Below are positions 19,935-39,033 of a stretch of 64,000 bases of DNA, one piece after another. Numbering within the stretch: the first letter of the stretch is position 1; every line of letters begins with the position of its first letter. Both the position numbers and the translations under genes were made by a program. The DNA is taken from IMG/VR virus record IMGVR_UViG_3300034105_002232; one strand, 5' to 3'. The notes beneath the pieces are model-generated. The model saw only the letters and a list, made by a program, of their open reading frames with translations, was not told the origin of the DNA and made no database searches. The DNA comes from a virus.

Positions 19935-19940
19935 TGTATT

Positions 19941-20017
19941 GCTCCTATGTGTAATAATAACATAGGCTGTAGAATTTGTAAAGCGGGATAAAGCCAGAAA
20001 GGCCGCTGTGTAGAATT
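19941..20017 (-). promoter_or_regulatory. candidate cis-regulatory RNA (riboswitch-like) in the queD leader
   Basis: Hairpin AGCGG/CCGCT followed by hairpin CCTATGT/ACATAGG that overlaps the AGGAG SD; TAAATA box directly upstream. Confidence 0.5.
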
Positions 20018-20021
20018 ATAT

Positions 20022-22577: not shown

Positions 22578-22765
22578 TAGTCACGTTCCATTTCAGCTGC
22601 TTCCTTGATGAGGGCTGTCAGTTCCGCAAAGTCCTTGCAAAGAACTTTGGCAGTAACCCATTCTTCGTTGCTGTTGCGTCCACCAACTTCAACCATGTAG
22701 CCATTGTCATACATGTAGACAGTGAAGTGGTCGTTACATTTTGTTAGTTTATTGTTGAGTTTCAT
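22577..22765 (-). CDS. hypothetical protein
   Basis: 62-aa ORF with GGAG RBS. Confidence 0.65.
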   Translation of the reverse strand: MKLNNKLTKCNDHFTVYMYDNGYMVEVGGRNSNEEWVTAKVLCKDFAELTALIKEAAEMERD

Positions 22766-22783
22766 TGCATCTCCGTGATTGAT

Positions 22784-23086
22784 TTATTTCTTCCAAAATT
22801 TGGCCTTGTCTAAAGCGGTTTTCTTTGGTTCTGATTTTTGCGGTGGCTCGGGTTCAGGTGGTGTTGTTCGAACAGGCAAATCTGATTTAAGCATGTTTTT
22901 GATCAACAGCACTGTTCTTTCTAATTCCTTGTCGGCTATTACTTTGATAGCCAATAATTTACTATCGTAATTGTTTGCACCATCAAGCAAGCCGGCTGGT
23001 ACTTTCATTGTTTTTTTTGGTTTAAGTGAGTCTAGTTGTTTCTTTAATGCTGCTGCGTCATTGTTATTATTATTTTCGTCGGACAC
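22784..23086 (-). CDS. hypothetical protein
   Basis: 100-aa ORF. Confidence 0.55.
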   Translation of the reverse strand: MSDENNNNNDAAALKKQLDSLKPKKTMKVPAGLLDGANNYDSKLLAIKVIADKELERTVLLIKNMLKSDLPVRTTPPEPEPPQKSEPKKTALDKAKFWKK

Positions 23087-23121
23087 TTTATTTTCCTATC
23101 AAACTAGATAGGACAAATATC

Positions 23122-23931
23122 CTATCTAGGTGCAAACTCCTGTTGCAATTTAATGTTGTCGAAGAATTCCTTCTTAACACTGGAGTCGGTTTTAAACGCA
23201 CCCTGAAGAACTGTAGTTTGTGTCAAACTACTATGTGCCATAATGCCACGGTTTTCACAACACCCGTGCGTTGCTTGAATATAAACTGCAACATTCTCAC
23301 TGCCTGTTGCTGACATAATTTCTCGAGCAATATCATTACATAGCTCTTCTTGCAACGTACCTCGCCTAGCACACCATTGTGCTATACGTGTATATTTACT
23401 CAAGCCAATTAATTTTTGGGCTGCAATGATACCAATATAGGCAACTCCAGCCACTGGCTGGTGATGGTGGCTGCACATGCTGCGTAACTCACTGCGTACA
23501 ACCAGCATACCGTCGTAACGATCTGCACTATCATTGGGAAAAGCCGTTGCTTCGGGTGCAGTTTCGTACCTGCCTGCCATTATTTCGTTAAAATACATCT
23601 TGGCAAGTCTACGTGCGGTGCCTTGGCTGTTGGGATCTGTTTCGCGATCAATTAGTAATGCATCTAATACCCCCTCAAATGCTTCTGTGGCTTCATTGAT
23701 CAAATGTTCGCGATCTGAATTGGCCACATAGTCGCTGATGTTGTCGCCTGCCCAGAAGCGTTTGTTGTCAGCTCGCATTCGTTCACGTAGGGCAGCACTC
23801 AGCAGTTTTTCTTTTTTAACACCAGGTTGGTCTACTGCACGAACGTACAATGGTGATGGTACTACTAAAGGTACAAACTCTGTTGGTGGTGGTTGATTTA
23901 ATACTGGATCTGGGGTAAATTCTGTTGTCAA
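23122..23931 (-). CDS. folE: GTP cyclohydrolase I
   Basis: TARRLAKMY, SMCSHH, GLSK..R, LQE, HGC...RG; TTG start after GGAG. Confidence 0.96.
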   Translation of the reverse strand: MTTEFTPDPVLNQPPPTEFVPLVVPSPLYVRAVDQPGVKKEKLLSAALRERMRADNKRFWAGDNISDYVANSDREHLINEATEAFEGVLDALLIDRETDPNSQGTARRLAKMYFNEIMAGRYETAPEATAFPNDSADRYDGMLVVRSELRSMCSHHHQPVAGVAYIGIIAAQKLIGLSKYTRIAQWCARRGTLQEELCNDIAREIMSATGSENVAVYIQATHGCCENRGIMAHSSLTQTTVLQGAFKTDSSVKKEFFDNIKLQQEFAPR

Positions 23932-24061
23932 TTGTGTTCTCCGAGTTAAGGACGTGGATGTCAAAGTATTAATATCTCTTGAGATATTAATTTAGATTTT
24001 ATCTTATTAGTAAATTCTGTATTGTTTATATTTTAGCAGTATTCACTAATAAGAGCAAAAA

Positions 24062-25189
24062 TTATTCTTCCCAAACATATGGGCCAGATTTTTGTACAGC
24101 AAAAGTTAAATACGATTCAATTTTTTCTAAATCTGCTGAAGTTTTTAAACTAGTAACTTCGTTAGCAAAGTGTAATTCAACTCCTAAGTCTAACGCCAAA
24201 TTTAAAATTTCTTTGCGTCTTTCTGCATCGTCGGTTAACGAATATATACTACACATTACTATACCGTCTGGCTTTTGTTTGATGTAATGTTCTAGTGCTG
24301 GTTGCCAATCCATATGCTCGTTGTCTGTTAGATAATCATTATAACTAATTTTATTTTTTACACAATATTGTTCTATAATAGAACGTTGCATAGGTAATGT
24401 TTGCCATTTACTAAAAGCACTACTCCATCCTGCATAAGTAACAAATTTTCTTCCGGTATTATCCGAAATCCTTGCACCTTCGTAGTCGCCTGGTAACCGC
24501 ATAAATCCTCCTGGGTTTCTACGCAAATATTCTTCTCCTTCAACCAGGATACGCATATCCATACTGACTCTAGTATAATTTTCTTTATTGTCTACATTAC
24601 CGTGCAAGTGTTCTTGTAAAAATAAGTGACTTTGGCCTGTATTCAAGGTTACTGGTTGTGCATAACGTAAACATTCTTTTTCAAATTTTTCTAAGCTCCA
24701 TTTTTCACTTAACACTTGCTTAGTAAGTTGCCTACTAATAGCTAAATCTAATATCCACATAGTATTAGTTTTCTCTGCGCGAGTAAAAGGTGTCCAAATG
24801 GTTCTGCAACCTCTACCATTGCCTACAAATATGCCCTGATGAAACCATAATCTGCGTCCTGCCTGTGCCTGATTAGGTATAACGACTCGTAGCGTACCTT
24901 GTCGTTGTATTAAATACTTTTTATAATTAATTCGTTGTGGAATATATTCTTCTACAAATTTATCAAATTTCTCCATGAAATCTTTTCTGCTGCATGCATT
25001 TTGCACATGGGCCGCAACCTTGACTATTTCAGCAGGATTTAGAACTTCGTGTAAAGTTTCTAGTTCTTTTACGTGTGGCATTATTTCTTGTATAATAGAC
25101 AATGCCCAAGCAGGCCAATTATACTTTCCTAAATTATAATTTAGAGTTTTGTTATTCCACTCTTTTTCGGTTATTTTTAGTTCTGTCAT
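24062..25189 (-). CDS. 2OG-Fe(II) oxygenase-like domain fused to a carbohydrate-cluster/resolvase-fold C-terminal domain
   Basis: H...(I)WTP...HGN..N...TRVSMDMR; C-terminus Q..II..YC...DGIV..SIYSL...LHFANE. Confidence 0.55.
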   Translation of the reverse strand: MTELKITEKEWNNKTLNYNLGKYNWPAWALSIIQEIMPHVKELETLHEVLNPAEIVKVAAHVQNACSRKDFMEKFDKFVEEYIPQRINYKKYLIQRQGTLRVVIPNQAQAGRRLWFHQGIFVGNGRGCRTIWTPFTRAEKTNTMWILDLAISRQLTKQVLSEKWSLEKFEKECLRYAQPVTLNTGQSHLFLQEHLHGNVDNKENYTRVSMDMRILVEGEEYLRRNPGGFMRLPGDYEGARISDNTGRKFVTYAGWSSAFSKWQTLPMQRSIIEQYCVKNKISYNDYLTDNEHMDWQPALEHYIKQKPDGIVMCSIYSLTDDAERRKEILNLALDLGVELHFANEVTSLKTSADLEKIESYLTFAVQKSGPYVWEE

Positions 25190-26106
25190 TGATTTTTCCT
25201 TAAAAATTTTAATAAATCAATAGTGTCATTGATACCGTTACTAAGGCTAACTTTAGGTTTCCACCCTAAAGTTTGTGTGATTAAATTATGATCGCTGTTT
25301 AGGTAATAGAGTTCACCAGGCCTAATAGGTTTTGAATCCCAAATAATTTTTCCTTGCCAGTTCAATTTATTAGCAATTAATTGTGCATAATCCTTGATCT
25401 TAATAGGATTGTCTGGTCCTAATGTGAAAGTTTTGCCTTCGCACAAGGTAGGATTATTAATTACTTGCTCCCATGCGTCAACTAAATCATCAATGTAGAT
25501 AAAGTTTCTATAAGGTTCTGCGTATCCTAAAGAAATTTCGTTAGGATTACTTAACATTTGTGAAATAATTTGTTCAGTTACAAAAAAGTTATTATCTTTT
25601 CTGCCGTAGCTATTTGTTTGCCTAATTATTGTAAACGGTAAATTTAAACAACGTCTAGCATATTCTAAATATTTTTCAACGCCAAATTTAGCAATAGAAT
25701 ATGGAGCATTGGGACTGGGTATAGTGTGTTCGTTAAACGCTATAAATTTATCAGGAATCAAATTTAGTTTTACTTCGTCGCTAATTGGTTGCCACCCATA
25801 TACCTCCATTGTGCTAGCAAAAACAAAGTTTTTTAAATTTTTAAGTTTACTAGCGGTTTCAATTAAGTTAACGCTACCTACATAATTAATTTGACTGAAA
25901 GTAATTTGTTCGTAAAAGCTTTGTTCAACTTCTGTTCTAGCAGCTAGATGAACTATTATTTCTGGATTGGACTCTATTACTTCTTTAGTTACTTCGGCAA
26001 AATTAAGTAAATCATTTTTTAAAAAATGTAACTCATTATTATGCCCAAGTCTAGCAGATAGGTAGGATCCTATAAAACCGGAATGTCCGGTAATTAAAAT
26101 TTTCAT
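25186..26106 (-). CDS. NAD-dependent epimerase/dehydratase (NDP-sugar 4,6-dehydratase-like)
   Basis: TGHSGFIG, HLAA, STMEVYG, PYSIAK. Confidence 0.9.
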   Translation of the reverse strand: MKILITGHSGFIGSYLSARLGHNNELHFLKNDLLNFAEVTKEVIESNPEIIVHLAARTEVEQSFYEQITFSQINYVGSVNLIETASKLKNLKNFVFASTMEVYGWQPISDEVKLNLIPDKFIAFNEHTIPSPNAPYSIAKFGVEKYLEYARRCLNLPFTIIRQTNSYGRKDNNFFVTEQIISQMLSNPNEISLGYAEPYRNFIYIDDLVDAWEQVINNPTLCEGKTFTLGPDNPIKIKDYAQLIANKLNWQGKIIWDSKPIRPGELYYLNSDHNLITQTLGWKPKVSLSNGINDTIDLLKFLRKNQ

Positions 26107-26678
26107 ATAATTGTAATTTGTCGCAAATCAGGATATTGATGATATTCAGGTAATTTGTTGATGGTAGTTAATTTTTCTAAACCAATTTTTGCGTCTTCGA
26201 TAGTGGGTCTATAGTGATACCCAATCTTGAACGTGCATTGTGATTCCCAAGGCGCAACAGATAATCTGCGTCCGTCGTATCGTTGTTCAATTATGGTACT
26301 GTATGCCTGTGCATCATCTAACAGTATAGCACCACCATGCCCTATATGTAAAGGTTTATTGTGCCCAAAACTCAGACACTGCATTTGTCCCGCACGATAC
26401 ATGTTTCTTTCCAATCTACGTGCGCTATCCCAGATGTTAGTGCCGTGAAACGGATATTCACCAACCCAGGTTTCTTCGGTGTACAAATATGCAATGCCCA
26501 ACTTGTGCATGGTCATTGGTATACTAAGATAGGTGAATGGAGTAAATGCTGTTTGAGTGACAGCATGGTATCGTAGACACATTTCAATCGCATGAGTACA
26601 ACAGTCGGTCATTATGGCATAAGGTGCACCAGTGTACTCGGCTAATGCCTGTTCAAATTTTAATATTTGATCAAACAT
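26103..26678 (-). CDS. short DegT-like PLP aminotransferase
   Basis: FE..LAEY.G, WDSA, SFGHNKPL..G.GG. Confidence 0.75.
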   Translation of the reverse strand: MFDQILKFEQALAEYTGAPYAIMTDCCTHAIEMCLRYHAVTQTAFTPFTYLSIPMTMHKLGIAYLYTEETWVGEYPFHGTNIWDSARRLERNMYRAGQMQCLSFGHNKPLHIGHGGAILLDDAQAYSTIIEQRYDGRRLSVAPWESQCTFKIGYHYRPTIEDAKIGLEKLTTINKLPEYHQYPDLRQITII

Positions 26679-27678
26679 TTTTTATATTTTGAACAAGTTG
26701 TTGTATATCGTTGGTATACCGTTTACCTAAATCAATGTTGTAAAACAATTCCATATTTTTTTTCCTCCTGTTATGTGTTTTGATAAAAATTTCATGTAGA
26801 TTTTCTTTGACTAAATCATCTAATATCTCATGAAGTTTAAACATTCTTTTAAATGGATCTGGTTCTATATCATAGTAATCATGATTTATGATATCGTCGA
26901 ATGTATCAATCCCGTAGCCTCTCAGATGTTCAACAGAACCTGCACAACTAAACAATAAAAATAACTGTCCAGCTGCAATAGGTTTCCAAGTTTTTTCTGA
27001 TATAAAAAAATTGTGTGCAACGGTAGTTTCGGTTACTAAATTTATGTAGCTGTTACGATATGCAGGATGTGACAGGTCTATATGGTGAGAACAAATATTT
27101 GTATCTCCAAACATAGGTAAATTAGCGCTAACATTATCCCATTCGGTAATTATATTGTTAGGAAGCAGAGGTTCGTCACCTCTGTTGTTTTTTATATTAA
27201 CTGGATCTGTGTGTATACTAAAAAAACAATCATCATAGTATGATTTATTTTTTAATACCAAATAATTGTAAATTCTGTGAGGTCGCGGAGTGCCATTTAA
27301 ACAGCAAACTTTGTATCTTCGTTTTACACGATTGATTCTGTTATTACCAATTGCTTGATCTTTAAGAACATTTTTTAAAAAATAATAATAAAATGGATGA
27401 TATACTAAATTTGATTTTTGTAAATGATGGGAGGAATCCGACGACAGTATCAGAAAGTTTAGCAGATAAGTTTTTATTTTGTCGTGTAGATCAAACGGAA
27501 TATTACCAAAATTACTATCACTAAAGAAAATAACTAAAATTTTATTTTTATCTGTAGTGATCAATGTGCGGTCATTCAAATCAATGCATTTGCATCCGTC
27601 AATGAATACAAAATTAGGATCTGTTAGACTATACAATCCATTTTGTAGATAATCAGGAAGGTCAGGAAGGGTCAGCAT
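26671..27678 (-). CDS. GT10-like/hypothetical glycan-modifying protein
   Basis: CLNG..RPHR and SYINLVTET...FISEKTWKPI...G.DTFDDII. Confidence 0.55.
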   Translation of the reverse strand: MLTLPDLPDYLQNGLYSLTDPNFVFIDGCKCIDLNDRTLITTDKNKILVIFFSDSNFGNIPFDLHDKIKTYLLNFLILSSDSSHHLQKSNLVYHPFYYYFLKNVLKDQAIGNNRINRVKRRYKVCCLNGTPRPHRIYNYLVLKNKSYYDDCFFSIHTDPVNIKNNRGDEPLLPNNIITEWDNVSANLPMFGDTNICSHHIDLSHPAYRNSYINLVTETTVAHNFFISEKTWKPIAAGQLFLLFSCAGSVEHLRGYGIDTFDDIINHDYYDIEPDPFKRMFKLHEILDDLVKENLHEIFIKTHNRRKKNMELFYNIDLGKRYTNDIQQLVQNIKNV

Positions 27679-28645
27679 CTCTAGTATACCATTTGTATGC
27701 ACTATCAATTAACTGATTGATAGTTGAGTAGTTGGGTTTCCATTTTAGTAAAGTATAAGCCACTGTGTAATTGGCAACCAGACGATCCGGGTCACCAGGG
27801 CGTCTTGGACCTACTGCGACCGCAATGCCATTGTAGTTCAGCATCACATAGTCAATGATTTCTTGGTTGCTGATACCATGCTCAGTACCAAGATTCATTA
27901 CCGCAGCATGTTTCTCAACTTGATTGTTCATCCAATCAATGGCACGTATATGTGCATCTGCCAAATCCCATACATGTATATAATCACGTATACAAGTACG
28001 ATCTGGGGTGTCGTAATCAATACCGTTCAAAGTAAATGTTTGACCAGCCAACTTGGCTTCTAGTATCCTGGCAATGATATGACTGGCACCAGGTGCTTGT
28101 CCAAGATCATGTGCGAAAGGCTCTGCTCCGGCTGCATTGAAATATCTAAAACACACACTGGGAACGCCGTATGCTGCATGATAATCGCTCAACATGCGTT
28201 CAGTCACATGCTTGCTAACACCGTAGGGACTGATAGGCAATTTGGGATCTGATTCATACACAGGTACAATCGCAGGATTGCCGTACACACTGGCACTGCT
28301 ACTAAACAGTATCAGGGGTTTTTTGTCTAAATCCTTTACATGTGTCAGCAGTGTAATAGTTTTTGCAATGTTGTTTTCGTAGTATTCTGCAGGATTGACC
28401 ATGCTTTCGCCAACCAAACTACTGCCTGCACAATGCACAATCACGTCAGGCTGTATCTCACTAATCCACAGCAAACTACTTTTACTAGCATAATCTTCGT
28501 GTAAATATCCATCTATGCCTTTAAGGGTGTGATCTCTGCGCACACGGTCAATGGTGTAGACCCGATTATCTTTGTCGTGTTGCTTTAATGCTCGTGCGAT
28601 GTGGCTACCAATGTAACCACATCCGCCTGTGATAACTATTTTCAT
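27662..28645 (-). CDS. galE: UDP-glucose 4-epimerase
   Basis: TGGCGYIGSH, VGES..NP..YY.NN, SSSASVYG, PYG.SK, RYFNAAGA, RDYIHV.DLA. Confidence 0.93.
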   Translation of the reverse strand: MKIVITGGCGYIGSHIARALKQHDKDNRVYTIDRVRRDHTLKGIDGYLHEDYASKSSLLWISEIQPDVIVHCAGSSLVGESMVNPAEYYENNIAKTITLLTHVKDLDKKPLILFSSSASVYGNPAIVPVYESDPKLPISPYGVSKHVTERMLSDYHAAYGVPSVCFRYFNAAGAEPFAHDLGQAPGASHIIARILEAKLAGQTFTLNGIDYDTPDRTCIRDYIHVWDLADAHIRAIDWMNNQVEKHAAVMNLGTEHGISNQEIIDYVMLNYNGIAVAVGPRRPGDPDRLVANYTVAYTLLKWKPNYSTINQLIDSAYKWYTRDADPS

Positions 28646-29838
28646 TAGTATTTGCTTTTGTGTGTGTGCTTACGATAGTCAGTACTCATACGCGACCAAG
28701 ACTCGCCCGTGCCTTCTAGTATGTCACAAATGCGATCAATGGTACCATCAGTCCAATCACTAATGGCGCCCATACCAGGGTGCGGATACTCCAGTAGTTT
28801 ATTAAGTTTAGTAATTGCATCATCTATGCTCCAAGGAATGTAAAGACGTTCTGAATCATTGGCAAACGTTTCAGGAAAACTGCGATACGCAGGATACAAC
28901 ACATTGGCACCCAATGTATCTGCTTCGCTTACGGTGTTGCTTACCCAGTCTTGCAATGCACAGTTAAACAACACTCTGGTATCATTCAGTAGATCATAGT
29001 AGTCATTCTTTTCTAGATCCTCGTGAATTACCAGTTTGCCTTCTGCTTGCAATTGGCGTGTACGGGCCATGTAACTATCATTGTTTGATTTTAATTTTGC
29101 ACCACTGAAGATACAGAATTCCACATCAGGCCAATCGTTGTACACAAAGTTGGCGCGACGATAGTATTCTTCGATCAAGTCCATGTAAAAATCTGGCTGC
29201 TTCTCTTGATCCCACCTTGCAGCAAAGCCCACTCTACGTTTGCGTTGAGCAAAAGGCTTTAGCTCACCTGCAACACGACCACGCACTTCTGCTTTGCCAA
29301 ATGCCAGTCCTGAAATATTATAAACAGGAGCACGCCATCCAGCCACTTTCATGTGCATGACCATTTCTTCATTGCTGGCAAGCACAATGTCTGCAAAGCT
29401 ATCCACCATTTTTTCATAGTGTCCCATCCAGGTCTGCATGTTCCATACATGTACAAAATCATCAGGATCAATACTTTGTGCAAGACAACGAACAGCAATA
29501 CGTGGACGGTGAGCAGGATCAATTTGATCAAGTATGTAGGGCAAGCTTTCAATGCCTGGCTGAAACATGTCTTCGAAGTAGACAACATCTTGATTGTTTA
29601 CTTCACCTTGTTGCATCATTCTGACCAGATTCATCAGCTGACTCATGCCAAAGTATGTGCGTCCGTGTGCATCTAACACTTGCCCTACACTGATCTTTTG
29701 ACTGTTGTCTAAAGTAAGTCCTGGTACAATATGATAGTCAATGCCACGTCGTTCGAACACGGCACGATTCCACTCCTGTAACTGTAATGTGTACCTTGCT
29801 TTGTAAGGCTCTAGGCCCATGTACCATAACTTACGCAT
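28645..29838 (-). CDS. GT-B (group 1) glycosyltransferase
   Basis: FAARWDQEKQP, LQDWVSNTVSEA..LG (E-x7-E-like region), YRSFPE. Confidence 0.8.
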   Translation of the reverse strand: MRKLWYMGLEPYKARYTLQLQEWNRAVFERRGIDYHIVPGLTLDNSQKISVGQVLDAHGRTYFGMSQLMNLVRMMQQGEVNNQDVVYFEDMFQPGIESLPYILDQIDPAHRPRIAVRCLAQSIDPDDFVHVWNMQTWMGHYEKMVDSFADIVLASNEEMVMHMKVAGWRAPVYNISGLAFGKAEVRGRVAGELKPFAQRKRRVGFAARWDQEKQPDFYMDLIEEYYRRANFVYNDWPDVEFCIFSGAKLKSNNDSYMARTRQLQAEGKLVIHEDLEKNDYYDLLNDTRVLFNCALQDWVSNTVSEADTLGANVLYPAYRSFPETFANDSERLYIPWSIDDAITKLNKLLEYPHPGMGAISDWTDGTIDRICDILEGTGESWSRMSTDYRKHTHKSKY

Positions 29839-30059
29839 TATGTGCGTTCCTTTTTAGCATACCAGTTCATACGCGGCCATTTGCCACGCTGCACACGATC
29901 AAACTCGCCCCAGGGCGTTTTATCGTTGTACAGGTGTCGTTCGTCGTAGATATAACCATATGTTACACAGAACTCTTTGTATTTTTCAAGATCTTCAAAA
30001 ATTTGAGCAACCTCGGGTTTCATTCTTAGATACTTCTTGAGCCAAGCAGGACCAGCCAT
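29838..30059 (-). CDS. hypothetical phage protein
   Basis: 73-aa ORF with GGAG RBS. Confidence 0.7.
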   Translation of the reverse strand: MAGPAWLKKYLRMKPEVAQIFEDLEKYKEFCVTYGYIYDERHLYNDKTPWGEFDRVQRGKWPRMNWYAKKERT

Positions 30060-30071
30060 GTTTACATCTCC

Positions 30072-30521
30072 TTAGATTTTTATTGAAAGGGAGGGTTGAG
30101 TTAGATTATAATTTATTGTGCAGCCATTTTCGCCATCTTCGCTTACATCAATTGTAACACAGCGATCAGGATATCGGCTAGCAATTTGGACATACAAGTC
30201 ATCTGCAATCATTTCGCAACTCTTATAGTCAAGCTGCAACACACTTTGATCGCCTGAATACAGTTGTTCAAGCCATCTTTTAAATTGGATGAATTCAATG
30301 TCGCGATCATTATGGAACACGTCAATATAAACCTTAAAATGAAATATGTGGCGATGAGGATGGGCCAGGAAGGAAACGTCAAATTGATCTCCGGTGGCCA
30401 GTTGCGGATCTGTGGCCGCTGCCGGATAGCAATGGATACCTTCACGCCTGAATGTTACCCAAATTTGTCGTTGGGCTTTATCCATAATTCTGTCTGCCGT
30501 TTGTCTTTGTTCTTGATTCAT
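30072..30521 (-). CDS. QueD-like T-fold protein (putative DpdL-type CDG decarboxylase)
   Basis: H..., LAHPHRHIF in place of CxxxHGH, DIEFI, SCEMIA, VSEDGENG. Confidence 0.6.
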   Translation of the reverse strand: MNQEQRQTADRIMDKAQRQIWVTFRREGIHCYPAAATDPQLATGDQFDVSFLAHPHRHIFHFKVYIDVFHNDRDIEFIQFKRWLEQLYSGDQSVLQLDYKSCEMIADDLYVQIASRYPDRCVTIDVSEDGENGCTINYNLTQPSLSIKI

Positions 30522-30526
30522 ATTAT

Positions 30527-31084
30527 TCAGGTAAACAGATTTCTATAAGTTGATGTTGACATAGCTTCGAGCGCAATCATGTCTGTATTAGATAATCTAA
30601 AAGAGTACGACTTCCTGTCGGGGCTGACTCTCTCAAAGAAACCGTAATACCCGCCTGTGTAACTGGTTCTAGTCAAATACGGGTTTGATATCAATTGTGC
30701 CTTGGCATGATTGTATGCTATCTCAATGAGATTCTGTATGTGACTATCGGAAAAGTCGTATACTTTGGCCGAGATAATAACATTATCCTTTGTGTATATT
30801 CTCAGTTGTTGTTGGAATTTTTCATACACATGTGACTGTTTGTACGGATTTCTAAATATATCCTCAAGAGACATATCTGCTATAGTCTGGGCGCTGGTAG
30901 CATCAAGATCTCTTGACTTAACCTCTAACCCCAGCGAAAGAATGTCTGGACCATGTCCTTTGTTAATTGGAACTCCTAGGTCTTCTAGTAATTTTTCTGT
31001 GTACCTACCAGCATGTCCATCATGATTAGTAGGTACTTTTTGGCCAATTAGTTTTGCTGCAAGTTTAAATATTTTAACTTTCAT
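30527..31084 (-). CDS. MutH/Sau3AI-like PD-(D/E)XK endonuclease
   Basis: AGR..E..L..LG.....GPD.....LEVKS. Confidence 0.6.
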   Translation of the reverse strand: MKVKIFKLAAKLIGQKVPTNHDGHAGRYTEKLLEDLGVPINKGHGPDILSLGLEVKSRDLDATSAQTIADMSLEDIFRNPYKQSHVYEKFQQQLRIYTKDNVIISAKVYDFSDSHIQNLIEIAYNHAKAQLISNPYLTRTSYTGGYYGFFERVSPDRKSYSFRLSNTDMIALEAMSTSTYRNLFT

Positions 31085-31590
31085 CTGATAACCTCATCTT
31101 TGGTGTATTTAGACCAGTCTGTAAATACTGTACGATTTTGTAAGTCGTGTACACTATGGCACCAGACTCCTGGATTACTTGCTTTAAAATCTTTGTCATC
31201 AAGTTTAATTATAGCATTATATCCCAGTTGTTGTATATAGGGTAATTTAACCGAAATCATTGGAATAAAATTATTGTGTTCGCAAAATCCATATTCAAGT
31301 ACATCCTCTGCAGCAGACACATCAAAATCTAAGGTACACAAGCGACCATCTTTTAGTAAAGGTCGAATCATGTTTTCCCATTGATCATAATATGATACAC
31401 TACTATCTGGCACAAAACTTTGATTGGCACCAAAATAGATATGCTCGCATTTATATGCTATATAAGCAGCTTCAATCAATTCTGTAGGTTGTATTCCAAC
31501 CACAAACAAGGTTTTTAATCCGAATGCTGGAGTATGTTCTACTTCAGTACCAACAAACAAACTCACATTGTTATGTCCTACTCTATTCAT
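31081..31590 (-). CDS. conserved hypothetical protein beside dpdA
   Basis: F.G.EVEHT...KTLFV, HIYFG, DF.ASNPGVW, T.W..Y..D. Confidence 0.7.
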   Translation of the reverse strand: MNRVGHNNVSLFVGTEVEHTPAFGLKTLFVVGIQPTELIEAAYIAYKCEHIYFGANQSFVPDSSVSYYDQWENMIRPLLKDGRLCTLDFDVSAAEDVLEYGFCEHNNFIPMISVKLPYIQQLGYNAIIKLDDKDFKASNPGVWCHSVHDLQNRTVFTDWSKYTKDEVIR

Positions 31591-31591
31591 A

Positions 31592-31798
31592 TCAATCTCC
31601 TAGATCCACACGTTCGTGGTCATGTTCCCATTGTAGTTTATTCAATCGAGCCACTTCGTCTTTGACAGCAAGACGTTTCTTTTTCATTTCCGCAAGTCGA
31701 TCAACTTCCACATGCGGATGGTTCCGTTCCATGTCGTCAATTTGTGTATTCAACGATCGGTGCATTTCTTCCAAGTGTTTAATTTTGGCTTTGTACAT
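31592..31798 (-). CDS. DUF465/YdcH-like coiled-coil protein
   Basis: H..L...I...E...KKKRLAVKDE. Confidence 0.7.
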   Translation of the reverse strand: MYKAKIKHLEEMHRSLNTQIDDMERNHPHVEVDRLAEMKKKRLAVKDEVARLNKLQWEHDHERVDLGD

Positions 31799-33346
31799 TT
31801 ATACCTCAAAAATATCAGAATTGAAAATTACGACTGGTTTTTCTTTCTTTTCTTTATCTAGTTTAACACCACTGCCTTCAATAATCAAATGCTTGTTGGC
31901 CTGAGTGTGTGCATTTTTTGCCTTCTTGCCTTTGAACCCTCTAGTACCAACAATCTCCATCCAATACGAATCATAATGCTCAATGATATCCAATGCTGTT
32001 TGCTTGTCAGGCGCAGCAAAGATACTATCAACAATATCTTTGAAAAATTCATGAGTTGGTCCGCTGTATCGCATCATGGCAGGATAGCTACCAGCATCGT
32101 ATTCACGATTGGCACGCTGCACAGATTCAATGTGTGTCCATACATTGTGTCCCATTAGCAAGGCATAGCTGAAACTATCCCATGATGTTTTTCCTTCTTT
32201 ACCATTTTTATTTAGGTCTCCGGGTTTGTATATACAAATATCTTTCATTTGCAACTGTTGACTAATTGGACTTTCATCAAAATGATCCCAGAAACCATCC
32301 GCTACAGTAGCGGCACCGTAACTGCGTGTGTCTGCGGAATATTTTTTATCATCCGCACTGGGGTTCATCCGGTAACTCCATTTTTCTCCTGGAGTAACGT
32401 CAATTTCGTGATACACCTGACCATTTGCAGTAGCCAGGAACGGACTTGCACAATCAAAACTGATAGTAAATGCAGGATTGATATATTTTCTGACAGACCT
32501 TTGAATATCAGTCAACAACAATGCCCATTCTAGTTTACTAGTACCCAGGAAGTGCATCCAATCATGCACGCCTTCTTGCAATAAATTATCATAGCGTAGT
32601 TCAACCAACCGCCTAAGAATTAAATGTACATCACACATGTTCTGACCGCCCATGGCCCAACCATTAAAATGAGTATCTGGGTACACAGCAGGATCACAGT
32701 AATGCTTCATCTCATGATACCAATCATCTGCCTCGGTATGATTTGCACCTTGTAACACATTAAGGATCTTGGTACCACCGTTTTTATAACCTCGACGGTG
32801 TTTCATAAAATAATCGTTGTTGTACTTGGTAGCGTTGACGGCTTCTTGGTGCGTGGTAATTTGACATGCTGCACTGGCTTTGGGACTATGAACTACCCAG
32901 GTAGGAATATCCAAGGTCATGGCATAATCACTGATGCCATCTAACCACTTCAAGACTGCTTCGCGCTTGGCCTGTGCCCGAGGGCAACCTGAGTTGGCCT
33001 TCCAGTCACCTTCCCACAAGCCCTTGGCAATCTGGAATCCGCCTGAGTCTCCCAGCATGAACGTGCCTGGCTCACGCTTACGAACCATGTCCTCGCCGGG
33101 ATCGTCTTTGGTTAAGTCTAGATTTGCGTGTCCTGCTGAGTAGAGACTCCAATGGTACGGAAACAGTGCTTGTTGACTGTTGAGCCAGTTGAGTTGCTCC
33201 ATGTGGGGTATTCCCTGTGGCATACGAGCAGGATCAACATAATCATTGTTAACACGTTGTTTTCCTATAAATGTGGCATAGAAGCCAGATATTGCTGGCA
33301 AGAATACCGCATAGTCGTTTTGTTTACTTGTTAAATCATCCTGCAT
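31799..33346 (-). CDS. dpdA: TGT-superfamily guanine transglycosylase (DpdA-like; inserts 7-deazaguanine into DNA)
   Basis: DSGGFQ, LDIP, VLQG, GWAMGG, HFLG, SFDCAS; no C-terminal CxCxxC zinc site of tRNA TGT; folE/queD/queE context. Confidence 0.75.
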   Translation of the reverse strand: MQDDLTSKQNDYAVFLPAISGFYATFIGKQRVNNDYVDPARMPQGIPHMEQLNWLNSQQALFPYHWSLYSAGHANLDLTKDDPGEDMVRKREPGTFMLGDSGGFQIAKGLWEGDWKANSGCPRAQAKREAVLKWLDGISDYAMTLDIPTWVVHSPKASAACQITTHQEAVNATKYNNDYFMKHRRGYKNGGTKILNVLQGANHTEADDWYHEMKHYCDPAVYPDTHFNGWAMGGQNMCDVHLILRRLVELRYDNLLQEGVHDWMHFLGTSKLEWALLLTDIQRSVRKYINPAFTISFDCASPFLATANGQVYHEIDVTPGEKWSYRMNPSADDKKYSADTRSYGAATVADGFWDHFDESPISQQLQMKDICIYKPGDLNKNGKEGKTSWDSFSYALLMGHNVWTHIESVQRANREYDAGSYPAMMRYSGPTHEFFKDIVDSIFAAPDKQTALDIIEHYDSYWMEIVGTRGFKGKKAKNAHTQANKHLIIEGSGVKLDKEKKEKPVVIFNSDIFEV

Positions 33347-34001
33347 AAAATTTTACCGAGTTAATTAGATTGTAGTCTGGTTGAAGGTATTCTAATAATT
33401 TTTGTTTATGTTCAATATTGCCTGGGTCAGCTAAAAATGCTACTAAATTTACGTAAAGTGGTCTATTAAGGAACATAGGGTTAATTTTTTTATCATCCAA
33501 CGGAAGATCAATATTAACAGAAGCAAGCCATTGCCTTATTTGACTTCCAGTATTGTCGTTCAGATAAAAAAAAGTTATTTTTTCTAAATCAATAAGTTGT
33601 ATATACTCAATTTGAAGTTGTGTGTGCCAATCAAGATTAAATTTGTTACGTGAGAAAAAGTATATAAAAGAAGATTTAACATCCTTGGTTAACAATTGAC
33701 AAAAACGATCTAGTAGTTTAACTGAGTCAGCAGGTAGATTTGCACGACCTTCTGGTGTTTCAATTGACAAACAGCATGTAATAAAAGCAGTGATCCATCG
33801 CTCTAGTGGATCACGCAGAACACAAAATATATTTTTATTAGCCAGCAGATCCTTTAAATCTGCAGGTGCAAGATTACTAATATAAAACCACGATGCATTA
33901 CAAAAAGCCTCGGTCAGTTTAGTATGAGCATTTTTCGCAATTGGCATATATAAAAATTTGTTGGAATTATCAATATAAAATTGTAAATCAAGGCGTTCCA
34001 T
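33336..34001 (-). CDS. sulfotransferase family 2-like protein
   Basis: 5'-PSB-like IAKNAHT; 3'-PB-like LRDPLERWITA; H...Q; D..L. Confidence 0.7.
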   Translation of the reverse strand: MERLDLQFYIDNSNKFLYMPIAKNAHTKLTEAFCNASWFYISNLAPADLKDLLANKNIFCVLRDPLERWITAFITCCLSIETPEGRANLPADSVKLLDRFCQLLTKDVKSSFIYFFSRNKFNLDWHTQLQIEYIQLIDLEKITFFYLNDNTGSQIRQWLASVNIDLPLDDKKINPMFLNRPLYVNLVAFLADPGNIEHKQKLLEYLQPDYNLINSVKFYAG

Positions 34002-34617
34002 AAAATTTTATCAAATTAATTAAGTTATGGTCTTTGCTAAAGTACTGAGTTACCTGTTCAAAATATTTAGGTTTTTCTTCTAATGCTTTTTTAAAAATTT
34101 GTTTAAATCTAAAACGTTCACTACTGTTTTCTGTCACATGTTGATAATTGTATTTAAAGTACCGATTAGTCATGCCATGACTACTCAGAAATTGACTAAA
34201 CAGCTGCCGGTAGCTTGAGTCGCACAAAAAAAATGTGCAGTTATCTAAATTGATACCATCTAGAAATAACACTTGTTGTTCAGTGTGATCATCAAAGGCA
34301 ACACGATCAAATACTAAATCAAAAAAGGCATCCAAAAACTGCAAAGGATCCAATTGGTTATGATACAAGAACATGTATTCTGCGATCCCGCTTAACCAAC
34401 GATCAACCGGATCTCGCAATACAACCAAGGCATGTTTGTGATACAGATTGTCGGTATGGTAATTGTAAATCTCCCATCCCCAATCTTTCAAATTGGGTTT
34501 GGTCCACGACGTGGCATTTTTAGGAATATTGATATACATTAGGTCAGAGTCTGGCTTTGACATACATTCGCCAAACACATGACCCTTTAATTTATAATAT
34601 TCTAAAAAATCAATCAC
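33988..34617 (-). CDS. sulfotransferase family 2-like protein
   Basis: IPKNATS; LRDPVDRWLSG; DHT..Q. Confidence 0.75.
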   Translation of the reverse strand: MIDFLEYYKLKGHVFGECMSKPDSDLMYINIPKNATSWTKPNLKDWGWEIYNYHTDNLYHKHALVVLRDPVDRWLSGIAEYMFLYHNQLDPLQFLDAFFDLVFDRVAFDDHTEQQVLFLDGINLDNCTFFLCDSSYRQLFSQFLSSHGMTNRYFKYNYQHVTENSSERFRFKQIFKKALEEKPKYFEQVTQYFSKDHNLINLIKFYGTP

Positions 34618-35345
34618 TTTTGCTGTGCAGGAATTATGTAATTGTAAACTGCTAGGCCGCTGTCAACTGTGATCTGTGCAGCACCTTCGTCGCTAAATCG
34701 AATCATTTTATCACCTGGCAGCCCAAGGATACTGATAACAGCACTGATGGGCCAGTGCCATGCTTTGGTCAACGACCCTGCCACGTCGTGGGCAAATACA
34801 AAGTTGCCGGCATGACTACTATGATCACCAAAGTAAAATACTAGATTGCCGTTTTCTGTTTTGGCAATAAATGTAGTTTCTTCGCTGTTGGCCTGTGATT
34901 GGAAACGTAGACGCTGAATAGCTGCTACACTGGGCTCAATTTCCACGCCCCACTTGACACCTTTGAACTTGACTGTTTTGAGTTTGTCGTTTACAATTTC
35001 TGCGCTCATGAAGCGATAGTCATTTTTAAAGTCGCCAGCCTTGTTTTCAAAATGTATGCCTCCAGGTTCGGCAACGCCATCTTTATCTCTTGTGATAATA
35101 CTCAATTTAGCATCTTCTCGGTATTCGGGAATACCAAGAATAGTATTAAGTTTACCCAAACTTGGCATACCAAACGTGCCTACAAAATCTGGAACAGGAG
35201 TATGAAATTGTGCTTGCACAATGGCAATACGTTCTTCGCTGACTGCATCAATTGATGTAATGGAATCTGTGCCAGTGATTTTAACTAAATCAATAATGCC
35301 TAAGCTGTGGGTGTGTGAAACTATGTCAAGTAAGTAATCTCGCAT
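34614..35345 (-). CDS. DNA polymerase sliding clamp (gp45-like)
   Basis: Size, FG...L..L pattern, C-terminal Y.YIIPA, position near the DNA polymerase. Confidence 0.7.
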   Translation of the reverse strand: MRDYLLDIVSHTHSLGIIDLVKITGTDSITSIDAVSEERIAIVQAQFHTPVPDFVGTFGMPSLGKLNTILGIPEYREDAKLSIITRDKDGVAEPGGIHFENKAGDFKNDYRFMSAEIVNDKLKTVKFKGVKWGVEIEPSVAAIQRLRFQSQANSEETTFIAKTENGNLVFYFGDHSSHAGNFVFAHDVAGSLTKAWHWPISAVISILGLPGDKMIRFSDEGAAQITVDSGLAVYNYIIPAQQK

Positions 35346-35368: not shown

Positions 35369-35397
35369 AGTATAACAATTGTATTTAGAAAAGTCAA
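35369..35397 (-). promoter_or_regulatory. sigma70 promoter TTGACT-N17-TATACT with a nested TAAATA box
   Basis: Read directly upstream of the clamp gene. Confidence 0.7.
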
Positions 35398-35400
35398 CAC

Positions 35401-36363
35401 CTAACGATATTTTATTTCGCCAAGGACCTGATGAGCTTTAACTGTGGATAAGGTGCCGGGTTTTTTTAATTCTACCCAGCTGGTAGATGGCAAGAAATCT
35501 GGAGCGTCAACAACTTCAAAGCCTAAACTTTCAGCCAGTGGCAACAACATACTTTTTGGTACATAGGTCATGAAATAGCTTTCGCTTAATCCTGCGCTTG
35601 CACTCAGATCTCCGTTGTTGTAGGTAAACAATATGATTCCACCGGGCTTTAACCAAGTCAACGACTGAATCAAAAATTGTTTTATACTGTCCAGACTCAA
35701 GTAATTAAAAAAGTTATAGCTAAAGATAAACCCAAATTGATTCGCAGGTAGTTGGTTTATCTTGTAATCAACAATTAGATATTTTCTTAGGCGAGCCTGG
35801 TATTCTGGTGTAAATTGATTATTTGTGTTGTCAAGGAATTCTTGATGCATGTCACTGACATAAAGCGGGTCCGAAGATACCAGATGTTTGGTCCACTCGC
35901 CATCCCTGCATCCAATTTCCAATGCAGGATATTTCCACCCGCTGTACAGTCTGATTCGATTGATCAGAGTGGTATCAGATCCTTCAACCATGGCCATTCG
36001 TTTGATATCTCGTATGATACCTGGGCTGGTATGGGTGTATTCAGTCTGGTAGTTCTTTTCAAAAAACTTTTTGGTCTTTACATCAATTTCATGATCTACC
36101 TGGTCAATTATGTGTTGTATGCTGGCTAAATCTTGGTCCAAATTGGTAAAAATTTTGTTGTGTAATTCAGCTGCAGCATTTGTGATTTGTTGCTGGTATT
36201 TCTCGTTGCCAAGTGTGGCCATGGATTGCAAGGATGCTTTATTTTTTTCAAGCTCGAGCTTGATCGTAGAGAGCTCTATGGCCTTCTGTAATTCATTACG
36301 CAATAATACCAATTCGTGCAGTTTCATTGATCTTTGCCACACACCGTTAATGATTGTGTACAT
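35401..36363 (-). CDS. class I SAM-dependent methyltransferase-like protein with N-terminal coiled coil
   Basis: LEIGCRDG, FGFIFS.N.F, LKPGG. Confidence 0.75.
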   Translation of the reverse strand: MYTIINGVWQRSMKLHELVLLRNELQKAIELSTIKLELEKNKASLQSMATLGNEKYQQQITNAAAELHNKIFTNLDQDLASIQHIIDQVDHEIDVKTKKFFEKNYQTEYTHTSPGIIRDIKRMAMVEGSDTTLINRIRLYSGWKYPALEIGCRDGEWTKHLVSSDPLYVSDMHQEFLDNTNNQFTPEYQARLRKYLIVDYKINQLPANQFGFIFSYNFFNYLSLDSIKQFLIQSLTWLKPGGIILFTYNNGDLSASAGLSESYFMTYVPKSMLLPLAESLGFEVVDAPDFLPSTSWVELKKPGTLSTVKAHQVLGEIKYR

Positions 36364-36369
36364 AGATAT

Positions 36370-39033
36370 TTAATCAAACGAGAATAGGCTATCAAAAGTT
36401 GTCTTGATATCTGTGTGACTGGGAATATCCCATGCCAATACTCCCAACAAGTTCTCCACCTTTTGGTCAACAATGGTGGCTTCCATTAGATTGTCGTCAA
36501 ACGGTAGATCTTTAAACCATTGTGGGATATGTGTTTCATCTGTTGGGTAACCCACACTGGTATAGCCCAGCGGATTGTCTCGTAGTTTGCACACAATGGT
36601 TTTCATCCCGTCTACGATAGCGATGCTGTAATTGTCTCCGTGCATGCGACGTAGATTGTTCCAGTTAAGTGCAGCACGAACATGCCCGGGCATGTTGGCA
36701 CGACCCAGTCGTTCTTCTTCTTTGCCATACTTGGTCAAGTTGTTCACACGTTTGGGTGTACCTTTTTCCCATGCAGGTCGGTCTTGAAATGCAATCTTGA
36801 ACTCACGCACACGATCGTATATCTCTTCTCGTTTGGCGTCAGTGAGCACAGCAGTCAACAACTCACTCAAGAAATCTTGCACCACTTTGGGAGTATCGCT
36901 ACGTTTGAGATCCAGCCCCATGGCCTTGACCTTGCCTGGCTTGCCGTGGGTATCTAGTCTGACGCCTTCGTAATCATACATTAGTAGAGCATAGCGTTTC
37001 TTCTTGATAAACAAACCTTTACTGGCTACAAGTTCACGTCCACCTTTGATTAGCTCACCGTTAGATCTGGGTACATGACAGGCTCGTTCCATAAATGCCG
37101 GAAAGCTGGCATTGACTTGGTCTGCAATGGTGTCGTACAACTGAGTGCAAATGTCTTGGTTCCATTCCATTCTGCCGGATTCAACTTCTTCTCTAACTGC
37201 TGGCCAAGCTGTGAAATAACATGAATCAGTGTCTCCGTAGATGATACTTTTACCCACATGGTCATATTCACCGAATATGCACTCATTGATATATGCATCC
37301 ATGTGCCTAGCAATGATGCGTCCAGTAAGAGTAGTACTTTGACCAATCCTTTTATCGAAAAATCTACAACCTGGATTAAGGATCGCACCGTAGAGACTGT
37401 TAAGGTTAATCTTTTTGACAAGTTGTCGTTTGTCCCAGAAGGCTCGATCTTCGTCAGTTGTGGATTCCTTTTTCTTTGCCTGGAGTTCTTTTCGTTCCGC
37501 GTACCATCGTTCCAGTAATCCGGGTACAACGGCTTTTTGTTCATAGCTAAAGATCGTGCCATTTGCACTAAGCATCCAAGGTTTATTTGAGTCAAAGACC
37601 AGTCTCCATACATCTGCAGCACTCAACACATCACTACGACCGTCACCTTCCCAGTCAATGGTGATCTCGGTACCTGCTTCACCTGCCATTACTGCTGTAT
37701 ACTCAAGACTGCCGAACATGTTTTCCCAGGCATCGGCAAAACTTGAACCTGCTGCAATCTTGTCAGCAATGTACCGCTCAGTCATTATTGGCCGGAGTTG
37801 CCCGACAATACTTTCTTGCGCCATGTTAAGGGCTCTAATAGCCGAGGGATAGAGCGAGTTGATGTCAATTGCTCCAATCCAGTCGTGCATGCCTTTTTTT
37901 GGGAAAGCAACATAGGCACCTGCCGCTTGTGTGTCACCTTGATCATCTCTGTTCTTTCTGTTAGGAACTACTAGACCACGTTGATGTGCTTCGTTGATGA
38001 TTGCTTGCTCTGTAACTGCCACTGCGCCCATTGTGGTGGGCAACAGCACTGTGTTGTCGTGCGCCAGTTCGTTGGCCAGGTCAAGAAAGCGCAGTTTCTG
38101 ATCCAGCTTGGCCAAAATCATGGTATCTTGTCTGTTGTAATCAATGAACTTTTCAAAGTCTTTGTTGTACAATTGATCAAGAGTTCCTTCGTACTGCAAC
38201 TTACGTTCACCTAACTCATATTCAGCAATGGCATCCAGACTATAACTATGCCGTTCTTCGTAAGTGTACTTGCGATACAACTGCATGTAGTCTAGATGTA
38301 CTCGACCAATCAAGTCAAAGGTAAGTTGTTCTGCGCCAAATCGTTCAAAGGTACGCTGTTTGGGCATTTGTCCCCACAAGCATAACCGTCGAGTGTCGTC
38401 TTTGCTCAACACTTTAATTATACGCATGGTAGTGTATGGAATATCAAATCCCTCACTGTTCCAGCCACTTAGAATATCTGCATCATCTATCAGATCAAGG
38501 AATGTGTTCAGCATATCCTCTTCACGTTCAAACAAGAAACAGTTGTCAAAGCGATCACAGATCTCCTGTGCAGTTTCCCAACTGTAGCTCTTGGGCGGAA
38601 CCACCATGGTTACCATTTTGTCCAGCCAGTCCAGATAGACCGAGATACTGGTAATTGCATTAAACGGATCTTCGGGACGACTGTAGCCGCGTACCAGATC
38701 AAAATCAACTTCAATGTCAAAGAAAGCTGTGTGTAACTTGGGTGACTGCACACCTGAATAATGTTCTTCCAGGCAGCGAAACACCGGATTGATGTCACTT
38801 TCCCATAGTCGTTTGTTTGAATTAACTCTTACTTCTTTTTGATATTCCTTGCCGTTGCGAGTACTAAATCTTGAAACTGGCGTACCGTAAACTGTGCGAA
38901 ACTTGCCTTTGGGGTCATCGTAGTAGAATAGATAGTTGGCAGGGTATTCTTTGTATACTCGTTCACCGTTGATTCTTTCTACAACATGAATGCGATCTTT
39001 GTCTCTTGCAAATAGTGCGTCAATGTAGCTCAT
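36370..39033 (-). CDS. family B DNA polymerase (T4 gp43-like)
   Basis: ExoI FDIEV, GWNS.GFD, YN..D, DINSLYPS, K..LNS.YG, YGDTDS, KKRY. Confidence 0.97.
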   Translation of the reverse strand: MSYIDALFARDKDRIHVVERINGERVYKEYPANYLFYYDDPKGKFRTVYGTPVSRFSTRNGKEYQKEVRVNSNKRLWESDINPVFRCLEEHYSGVQSPKLHTAFFDIEVDFDLVRGYSRPEDPFNAITSISVYLDWLDKMVTMVVPPKSYSWETAQEICDRFDNCFLFEREEDMLNTFLDLIDDADILSGWNSEGFDIPYTTMRIIKVLSKDDTRRLCLWGQMPKQRTFERFGAEQLTFDLIGRVHLDYMQLYRKYTYEERHSYSLDAIAEYELGERKLQYEGTLDQLYNKDFEKFIDYNRQDTMILAKLDQKLRFLDLANELAHDNTVLLPTTMGAVAVTEQAIINEAHQRGLVVPNRKNRDDQGDTQAAGAYVAFPKKGMHDWIGAIDINSLYPSAIRALNMAQESIVGQLRPIMTERYIADKIAAGSSFADAWENMFGSLEYTAVMAGEAGTEITIDWEGDGRSDVLSAADVWRLVFDSNKPWMLSANGTIFSYEQKAVVPGLLERWYAERKELQAKKKESTTDEDRAFWDKRQLVKKINLNSLYGAILNPGCRFFDKRIGQSTTLTGRIIARHMDAYINECIFGEYDHVGKSIIYGDTDSCYFTAWPAVREEVESGRMEWNQDICTQLYDTIADQVNASFPAFMERACHVPRSNGELIKGGRELVASKGLFIKKKRYALLMYDYEGVRLDTHGKPGKVKAMGLDLKRSDTPKVVQDFLSELLTAVLTDAKREEIYDRVREFKIAFQDRPAWEKGTPKRVNNLTKYGKEEERLGRANMPGHVRAALNWNNLRRMHGDNYSIAIVDGMKTIVCKLRDNPLGYTSVGYPTDETHIPQWFKDLPFDDNLMEATIVDQKVENLLGVLAWDIPSHTDIKTTFDSLFSFD

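Follow-up and report, generated by a model that had tools for sequence, protein, structure and literature searches.

Does a phage add a sugar to the 7-deazaguanine that it is predicted to place in its DNA? The question is raised by IMG/VR virus record IMGVR_UViG_3300034105_002232, of which a stretch of 64,000 nucleotides (the window) was analysed. The stretch comes from an uncultured T4-like giant lake phage and encodes, in a run of genes lying wholly on its minus strand, a DpdA-like DNA-guanine transglycosylase (P0001), the QueD paralog DpdL (P0003) and a glycosyltransferase (GT; P0002). A sequence-only reading of this locus had suggested that the deazaguanine inserted by the DpdA-like enzyme may be further glycosylated. 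Comparison with related loci, together with predicted structures, leads to a similar proposal, namely that the deazaguanine in the phage DNA carries a sugar added by the GT, in what would be a QueC-less DpdL system extended by a sugar step. Judged from gene content and predicted functions, the probability of this reading is about 0.5.

A glycosyltransferase tied to DpdL

The evidence that carries this proposal is the gene neighborhood of the GT. Per-gene profiles were searched in 103 loci, and DpdL adjoins the GT in 94 of 94, a count from which GT loci cut off at a contig end are excluded. The 94 loci include six or more cultured lineages and 17 divergent IMG/VR contigs, in which the GT is 33-39% identical to P0002 and the genes follow the order QueD-QueE-FolE-DpdL-(169-amino acid protein)-GT. 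Co-occurrence of the GT family with dpdA and QueD-fold genes had been named by the sequence-only reading as a check on its proposal, and its outcome is strongly positive. Cultured carriers of the triad are PA5oct (EST35_0316/0317/0318), ACP17 (ASD50403/50404/50405), Phosso, X1/BUDD, BCSR5 and BUCT-ZZ01. The pairing of GT and DpdL spans phages with different polymerases and genome sizes, and every lineage with the GT also has FolE, QueD and QueE. The transglycosylase varies: the GT is found with three types of DpdA, the P0001 type (homologs of which adjoin the GT and DpdL in PA5oct), the ACP17 type and the phrog_887 type.

The association is one-sided. DpdL is present without a GT in phiST and RHph_I1_18, whose loci were read, and in Bakedbeans, D479, Ahp1, Roos and MA9V-3, in which tblastn detected no GT. 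No member of the GT subfamily without DpdL was seen among the loci examined, and this asymmetry fits a GT step downstream of DpdL. In 185,579 species genomes only four close matches to the GT were found, all of them this phage module on contigs of metagenome-assembled genomes; the same genomes yielded no close relatives in bacterial glycan loci. The family comprises 793 representatives at the 50% identity level, with matches in more than 590 IMG/VR stretches; a scan of IMG/VR with P0248 gave no match. In distant members of the phage family no protein of the module is as well conserved as the GT (76-78% identity, against 60% for PolB and 41-51% for DpdA), and its conservation above PolB and DpdA is counted as a sign of selection.

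The third DpdA type belongs to two complete phages of 80-91 kb from the divergent group. A phrog_887 gene, annotated as 'queuine tRNA-ribosyltransferase', lies directly 3' of the GT in one locus (L097, 11104-12048, plus strand) and one radical S-adenosylmethionine (SAM) gene beyond it in another (L091, 12146-13201, plus strand). It was missed by searches with PF01702, with the A2 (P0001-family), ACP17-type and phiST-type profiles and by a scan for the DSGG motif. The idea that these phages lack DpdA was rejected when PHROG profiles located phrog_887 at or just after the GT. The radical SAM gene that follows the GT in L091 encodes a QueE-like protein of 274 amino acids, distinct from the 495-amino acid radical SAM protein of the window.

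The glycosyltransferase and its structural relatives

P0002 (28645-29838, minus strand) is a protein of 397 amino acids. Its AlphaFold2 (AF2) model, with a predicted local distance difference test (pLDDT) score of 95.1 and a predicted TM-score of 0.93, has a GT-B topology of two Rossmann-like domains. It is matched best by BshA, sucrose-phosphate synthase, PimA and PglA (Z 24-26), and a cyanobacterial tetrahydrobiopterin glucosyltransferase is matched at Z 23.4. Based on this model, P0002 is identified with confidence as a genuine GT-B/GT4 glycosyltransferase, in agreement with the GT-B identity proposed earlier. A structural comparison with the two glucosyltransferases of T4, also proposed then, gave a divided answer. 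The α-glucosyltransferase (AGT, 1y6f) is related to P0002, at Z 21.0 over 324 aligned residues, whereas small-molecule GT4 enzymes are closer (25-26) and the β-glucosyltransferase (BGT) is not among the 50 matches listed for the model.

Sequence comparison supplies further detail. P0002 has a single Pfam match, to PF13524 at 17 bits (cut-off 25), and a sequence search of the PDB returned nothing useful; its relatives P0163, P0262 and P0176 pass the Pfam cut-offs for GT1-family domains (Glycos_transf_1 / Glyco_trans_1_4 type). R208 and K213 do not vary in the family alignment and E305 hardly does, and the family profile aligns R208...K213 with the 'GRLDxxKNP' stretch of PglH. These residues presumably correspond to the R...K and Glu residues with which the C-terminal domain of GT4 enzymes binds the donor diphosphate. 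The N-terminal acceptor domain has invariant residues of its own (R15, Q67, D90, D127, W137 and E142). GT4 enzymes with small acceptors (BshA, MshA, SenB, LmbT and BGluT, 5zer) align with P0002 at Z 22-26 over about 310-345 residues and keep the R...K and E residues, but they are only 8-14% identical to it, and the P0002 subfamily was found only in phages, always beside DpdL.

The deazaguanine core

The QueD-fold protein of the run (P0003, 149 amino acids; 30072-30521, minus strand) is identified by motif and homology as DpdL, a T-fold QueD paralog. Its motif, L-AHP-HRH-I-F, fits the signature LxxxHRHxF, in place of which QueD has CxxxHGH. The signature defines DpdL, and the DpdL of phiST has been proposed to be a 7-carboxy-7-deazaguanine (CDG) decarboxylase (PMC10516641). 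P0003 is 52% identical to the DpdL of ACP17 (E 4e-45) and matches that of phiST by tblastn (E 1e-9). The sequence-only reading called the protein QueD-fold but missed its published identity.

P0001 (31799-33346, minus strand) is a DpdA-like DNA-guanine transglycosylase of 515 amino acids, recognized by its fold and catalytic motifs. For its AF2 model (pLDDT 83), the top 50 Foldseek matches are all tRNA-guanine transglycosylase (TGT) of Z. mobilis (E 3e-8, probability 1.00, TM 0.38-0.56). The motifs D100-SGGFQ and SF-D298-C are invariant across 19 members of the P0001 family, and we take D100 and D298 to be equivalent to D102 and D280 of TGT. The TGT fold and the two catalytic Asp motifs uphold the earlier dpdA-like call. 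No match was obtained in Pfam (the gathering score of PF01702 was not reached), in NCBIfam or, by sequence, in the PDB, where the DpdA profile also found nothing useful; homology to TGT and DpdA is visible only by fold and profile comparison. The relationship to DpdA3 of ACP17 is remote (hhalign probability 63%, E 7e-5) and not significant by BLASTP. Cultured relatives of P0001 occur in PA5oct-like Pseudomonas jumbo phages, Sinorhizobium phage Phosso and a Vibrio jumbo phage, and about 8,000 or more relatives are found in public metagenomes. P0001 may represent a separate, undescribed DpdA subfamily that PA5oct shares.

The base-supply genes lie further along the minus strand (18583-23964), where Pfam matches identify FolE, a phosphoribosyltransferase, a 178-amino acid protein, a radical SAM protein of 495 amino acids, QueD and QueE, with MetK next after QueE in the gene order. 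No QueC was found in three relatives that are 98-100% complete. Because DpdL, a TGT-fold enzyme and FolE/QueD/QueE are present and QueC is missing from these near-complete relatives, the locus is recognized as the published QueC-less, DpdL-type 7-deazaguanine DNA modification system described from Cellulophaga phage phiST. The DpdL/DpdA3 system of that phage yields 2'-deoxy-7-deazaguanosine (dDG) (Cui, Hutinet et al., NAR 2023, PMC10516641). The two loci share FolE, QueD and QueE without QueC, a QueD paralog with the LxxxHRHxF signature, a distant TGT homolog and a place beside DNA polymerase genes. They differ in that phiST has no GT, 169-amino acid partner or GalE and contains MazG and an AAA_18 kinase-like gene instead. 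Its transglycosylase is also of a different type, with 259 amino acids compared with 515 here.

Within the base-supply set, the phosphoribosyltransferase (22026-22577, minus strand) recurs in PA5oct and BUCT-ZZ01. From its position among the deazaguanine genes, it probably salvages the guanine released in base exchange; alternatively, it may make a deazaguanine nucleotide. The radical SAM protein (20022-21509, minus strand) is encoded between QueD and the phosphoribosyltransferase and has homologs in only five related loci.

Partner genes and accessory layers

Several further proteins are encoded between or around these enzymes. The most widely kept is a protein of 169 amino acids (P0276; 31081-31590, minus strand), for which Pfam, the PDB and the Atlas gave no match. 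Its homologs adjoin DpdL or the GT in ACP17 and several 80-98 kb phages, making it the third widely conserved partner of the module. In L103 (7913-8725, plus strand) a DpdL domain and a domain of the 169-amino acid family occupy one stop-to-stop frame, which suggests a gene fusion and hence a direct functional link. L101 (4836-5615) and L102 (9129-10001) may contain the same shared frame.

All 74 of the 74 IMG/VR loci from this phage family encode, between DpdL and the GT, a small basic protein of 73 amino acids (29838-30059 in the window, minus strand) that is absent outside the family. The 68-amino acid protein encoded at 31592-31798 (minus strand) belongs to DUF465, as had been suspected (PF04325, E 1.4e-11), and occurs in 55 related loci. 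The supposed nuclease (185 amino acids; 30527-31084, minus strand) does resemble MutH, but weakly, with a PF02976 match at E 0.002 that falls below the cut-off. Its gene, situated between the 169-amino acid partner and DpdL, has homologs in only 2 of 80 related loci and, from this distribution, looks like a mobile or private insertion and not a member of the pathway.

The UDP-glucose 4-epimerase GalE (27662-28645, minus strand), whose start shares 1 nt with the stop codon of the GT, passes TIGR01179 with 278 bits (cut-off 262.3). The identity proposed for it by the sequence-only reading stands, but not a role as constant companion of the GT: GalE is the next gene after the GT in 23 of 71 loci and is absent from ACP17, and the distant clade has only a short-chain dehydrogenase/reductase (SDR) of about 30% identity, several kb from the GT. 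GalE and a short DegT-like protein (mini-DegT) are frequent, yet restricted to one clade.

Two AT-rich genes between the clamp gene and DpdA encode sulfotransferase-like proteins of 209 amino acids (STa; 33988-34617, minus strand; motifs PKNATSW and RDPVDRW) and 221 amino acids (STb; 33336-34001, minus strand; motifs AKNAHT and RDPLERW), which are 22% identical to each other. Across their family K33, R68 (nearly), P70 and R73 are conserved; the motifs of the two proteins resemble the PKxxxT-type 5'-phosphosulfate-binding (5'-PSB) and RDPxxR-type 3'-phosphate-binding (3'-PB) motifs for 3'-phosphoadenosine-5'-phosphosulfate (PAPS). The tandem sulfotransferases of the earlier note are supported at the family level, as 8 of 17 members match PF03567 (Sulfotransfer_2; best E 6.6e-8), but the copies in the window stay under the Pfam threshold (STb 17.2 bits, cut-off 22; STa no match) and form a clade-restricted cargo. 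Among relatives, the slot from clamp to DpdA holds 0, 1, 2 or 3 copies, all within the clade that shares 78% or more PolB identity with the window. A search of the PDB with the family profile gave nothing useful, and tblastn found no match in 50,697 cultured-phage records. The AT-richness reported earlier is real, with a GC content of 0.33 compared with about 0.42 in the neighboring genes. Neither GalE nor the sulfotransferase-like genes are constant parts of the module; they form accessory layers that, from their gene context, may act on the sugar of the GT.

Beyond GalE the run continues with four more genes, an AT-rich sugar cassette (24062-27708, minus strand; GC 0.31-0.38) coding for a protein of 345 amino acids, the mini-DegT (191 amino acids), an SDR epimerase/dehydratase (306 amino acids) and a protein of 375 amino acids. 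The mini-DegT has about half the length of the Pfam profile for DegT (360 positions), yet 41 loci have conserved it, and in relatives its gene lies next to GalE. The 345-amino acid gene splits this otherwise adjacent pair and, like the 375-amino acid gene, is nearly private to this phage.

Other lineages show further genes of this kind. BUCT-ZZ01 encodes a second GT4-like protein of 447 amino acids (UTS52035; L081, 10611-11954, minus strand) between DpdA3 and FolE, and homologs of it adjoin an SDR in the distant clade (L052, L060, L065 and L079). With this second GT4, the decoration in some lineages might comprise two sugars. P-loop proteins resembling adenosine-5'-phosphosulfate (APS) kinase occur in two relatives (L114, 1540-2175, plus strand; L115, 1484-2284, plus strand), and the one in L114 is fused to DUF2061. 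In the window a DUF2061 open reading frame (ORF) stands alone between QueE and MetK (18386-18577). A phage-side supply of PAPS through the APS-kinase-like proteins was set aside as a weak lead, because the match is limited to the first 90 of 152 positions in the profile and the window has no such protein.

Proposed pathway and its alternatives

The gene content suggests the following pathway. FolE, QueD and QueE would convert guanosine triphosphate to CDG by the established route, and DpdL would remove the carboxyl group to give 7-deazaguanine, as proposed for phiST. The TGT-fold enzyme, whose gene lies beside polymerase and clamp genes, would exchange guanine in the phage DNA for 7-deazaguanine, and the phosphoribosyltransferase would probably recycle the guanine released. 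The GT4-type enzyme would transfer a sugar from a nucleotide-sugar onto the deazaguanine, either as the free base or within DNA. Virion DNA would then bear a sugar-carrying deazapurine that blocks restriction enzymes. In the clade of the window, GalE, mini-DegT and the second SDR would tailor or supply the donor, for example uridine diphosphate (UDP)-galactose, and the sulfotransferase-like genes would add an optional, fast-changing decoration. That the virion DNA of this clade contains 7-deazaguanine with a galactose-type sugar, subsequently sulfated by the tandem sulfotransferase-like enzymes, is a long shot. If true, such a sulfated glycosyl-purine would be a class of DNA modification for which no description was found in the literature, and the slot with 0 to 3 copies would be a dial in an arms race.

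A number of considerations weigh against a sugar on the DNA base. Since 7-deazaguanine has no hydroxyl, the candidate attachment atoms are N2, O6 and, as a C-glycoside, C7, and we know of no retaining GT4 enzyme that acts on any of these positions of 7-deazaguanine. Deazaguanine natural products glycosylated at N2 include huimycin and dapiramicin. The modeled structure of P0002 cannot separate DNA from a small-molecule acceptor, and the nearest solved enzymes (BshA, MshA, SenB and the pterin glucosyltransferase) act on small molecules. The decarboxylase activity of DpdL is itself only proposed in the literature. Because GalE and the sulfotransferases are not constant partners, the nature of the sugar cannot be read off. 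Lastly, an outgroup GT of 24% identity in Xanthomonas phage PhiXhv-12 (L085, 9866-10969, plus strand) and phages like it has no deazaguanine genes within 10 kb. This outgroup gene adjoins GlmS and a BshB-like deacetylase, both amino-sugar genes, and may belong to a different sugar-based modification.

A serious rival, judged unlikely, is that the GT and the 169-amino acid partner make or deliver deazaguanine and that the DNA ends up with plain, sugar-free dDG, like that of phiST. The GT would place a transient handle on a pterin or deazapurine intermediate, or have a structural role beside DpdL. Such a function is consistent with the ties of the GT to DpdL and the 169-amino acid protein and not to any one DpdA type, with the open frame shared by DpdL and the 169-amino acid domain in L103, and with nearest structures that use small molecules, the tetrahydrobiopterin glucosyltransferase (Z 23.4) among them. 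It also agrees with the failure to reconstitute dDG with DpdL and DpdA alone, for phiST as well as ACP17 (PMC10516641). Absent partners could explain this failure for ACP17, which has a GT; phiST has none. However, phiST makes dDG without a GT, and the variable tailoring genes around the GT (GalE, mini-DegT, sulfotransferases and, in BUCT-ZZ01, the second GT4) look like the diversification of a displayed end product and not of a transient intermediate.

The same tailoring genes could instead form, with the GT and the SDR, a glycan cassette for host envelope polysaccharide or virion proteins, an explanation that appears improbable. Polysaccharide synthesis typically involves GT4 enzymes, GalE, DegT and PF03567 sulfotransferases, and the AT-rich composition of the region 24062-27708 and of the sulfotransferase genes gives them a recently acquired look. 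The GT nevertheless adjoins DpdL where GalE, DegT and sulfotransferases are missing (ACP17 and the 80-98 kb phages), PA5oct retains only a short SDR-like ORF, the GT is better conserved than PolB, and bacterial glycan loci yielded no close relatives. For the accessory genes taken alone, the glycan explanation may hold. Far less credible still is a T4-style enzyme that glucosylates a hydroxymethyl-pyrimidine, with the deazaguanine neighborhood a coincidence. In structure, T4 AGT is clearly related to P0002 (Z 21.0, 324 residues), and a 354-kb relative has a ThyA-family gene, but this gene scores 349 bits against the family profile and is read as a probable ordinary thymidylate synthase. Four phages with the module that are 90-100% complete have no ThyA-family gene at all, which makes a hydroxymethyl-pyrimidine target unlikely, and small-molecule GT4 enzymes match P0002 better than AGT does.

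Precedents and significance

The reading of a sugar-bearing deazaguanine in phage DNA has partial precedents. P0002 resembles T4 AGT and BGT in being a phage GT-B enzyme that is expected to use a UDP-sugar and predicted to decorate a non-canonical DNA base against restriction. It differs in having no sequence similarity to them and in being structurally closer to small-molecule GT4 enzymes. Unlike in T4, the partner pathway makes a deazapurine without a hydroxyl handle, and no hydroxymethylase was found in complete relatives. Judged by analogy, the nearest precedent for a sugar-bearing deazaguanine is glycosylated queuosine in tRNA. In vertebrate tRNA, queuosine is mannosylated by QTMAN (GTDC1) and galactosylated by QTGAL (PMC11755703, PMC12518689, 10.64898/2026.06.28.735034). 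As may be the case here, a TGT-family enzyme first inserts a 7-deazaguanine derivative into nucleic acid and the sugar is then placed on it; by contrast, the substrate is tRNA and the sugar is attached to hydroxyls of the queuosine cyclopentenediol. The queuosine side chain cannot be made by the phage, because QueC, QueF, QueA and QueG are absent.

Literature searches found no published glycosylated deazaguanine in DNA. The sugar-bearing DNA bases known to us, glucosyl- and arabinosyl-hydroxymethylcytosine and base J, are all pyrimidines, and a glycosylated deazapurine, if true, would constitute a new chemical class of natural DNA base. It would belong to a very common phage family, given the many relatives of the DpdA-like enzyme and the GT in metagenomes. 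The proposal also bears on the failed reconstitution of dDG by DpdL and DpdA and on the modified base of PA5oct, a triad carrier that is reported to contain a modified G of unknown identity (PMC12191111). Bases of this kind have consequences for sequencing, for restriction and CRISPR targeting, and for selecting therapeutic phages. With several cultured phages carrying the triad, the prediction is easy to test.

The gene run and its replication neighborhood

Among cultured phages (50,697 phage records), the sole blastn match to the window is one gene of Synechococcus phage BUCT-ZZ01. The run comprises 11 minus-strand ORFs from 35345 down to 27662, in which neighbors overlap by 1-14 nt or are separated by 0-12 nt: the clamp gene and STa overlap by 4 nt, DpdA and DUF465 abut, and the GT and GalE share a single nucleotide. 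No terminator-like sites on the minus strand were found between its genes. ORF positions and junctions bear out the tight run from clamp to galE described by the sequence-only reading, but not its end at 27662, as the four coupled genes of the sugar cassette extend it to 24062.

The promoter proposed at the head of the run also has a counterpart in the sequence. A consensus-like site on the minus strand (35369-35397), TTGACT-17-TATACT with an extended -10 TG, lies within the 55 nt that precede the clamp gene. The region as a whole shows no enrichment of promoter-like sites (59 seen, 47.7 +/- 7.8 expected), and weight is given to this site because it is placed in one of the few intergenic gaps. 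It is regarded as a promoter-like candidate for the 11-gene run.

The first gene of the run (34614-35345, minus strand) encodes a protein of 243 amino acids that is probably a gp45/PCNA-like sliding clamp, an assignment that its size and its place after PolB would fit. Language-model look-alikes in the Atlas are named PCNA or sliding clamp (scores 0.95-0.98), and the gene comes after PolB in 66 loci. The clamp identity given earlier is favored by this position and these look-alikes but finds no Pfam or PDB sequence match; the protein matches phrog_12062, annotated as of unknown function, and a PDB search with the clamp profile gave nothing useful. A polymerase processivity factor also follows the phrog_887 DpdA in L097 and L091, and L091 has a DNA polymerase there as well. 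With this arrangement in the 80-91 kb phages, the link to clamp and polymerase recurs with an unrelated replication apparatus. Upstream of the run in the window, the gene order is PolB (36370-39033), a SAM methyltransferase (35401-36363), the 55-nt gap and the clamp. The methyltransferase, a class I enzyme of 320 amino acids on the minus strand, occupies this position, with PolB on one side and the clamp on the other, in 42 related loci.

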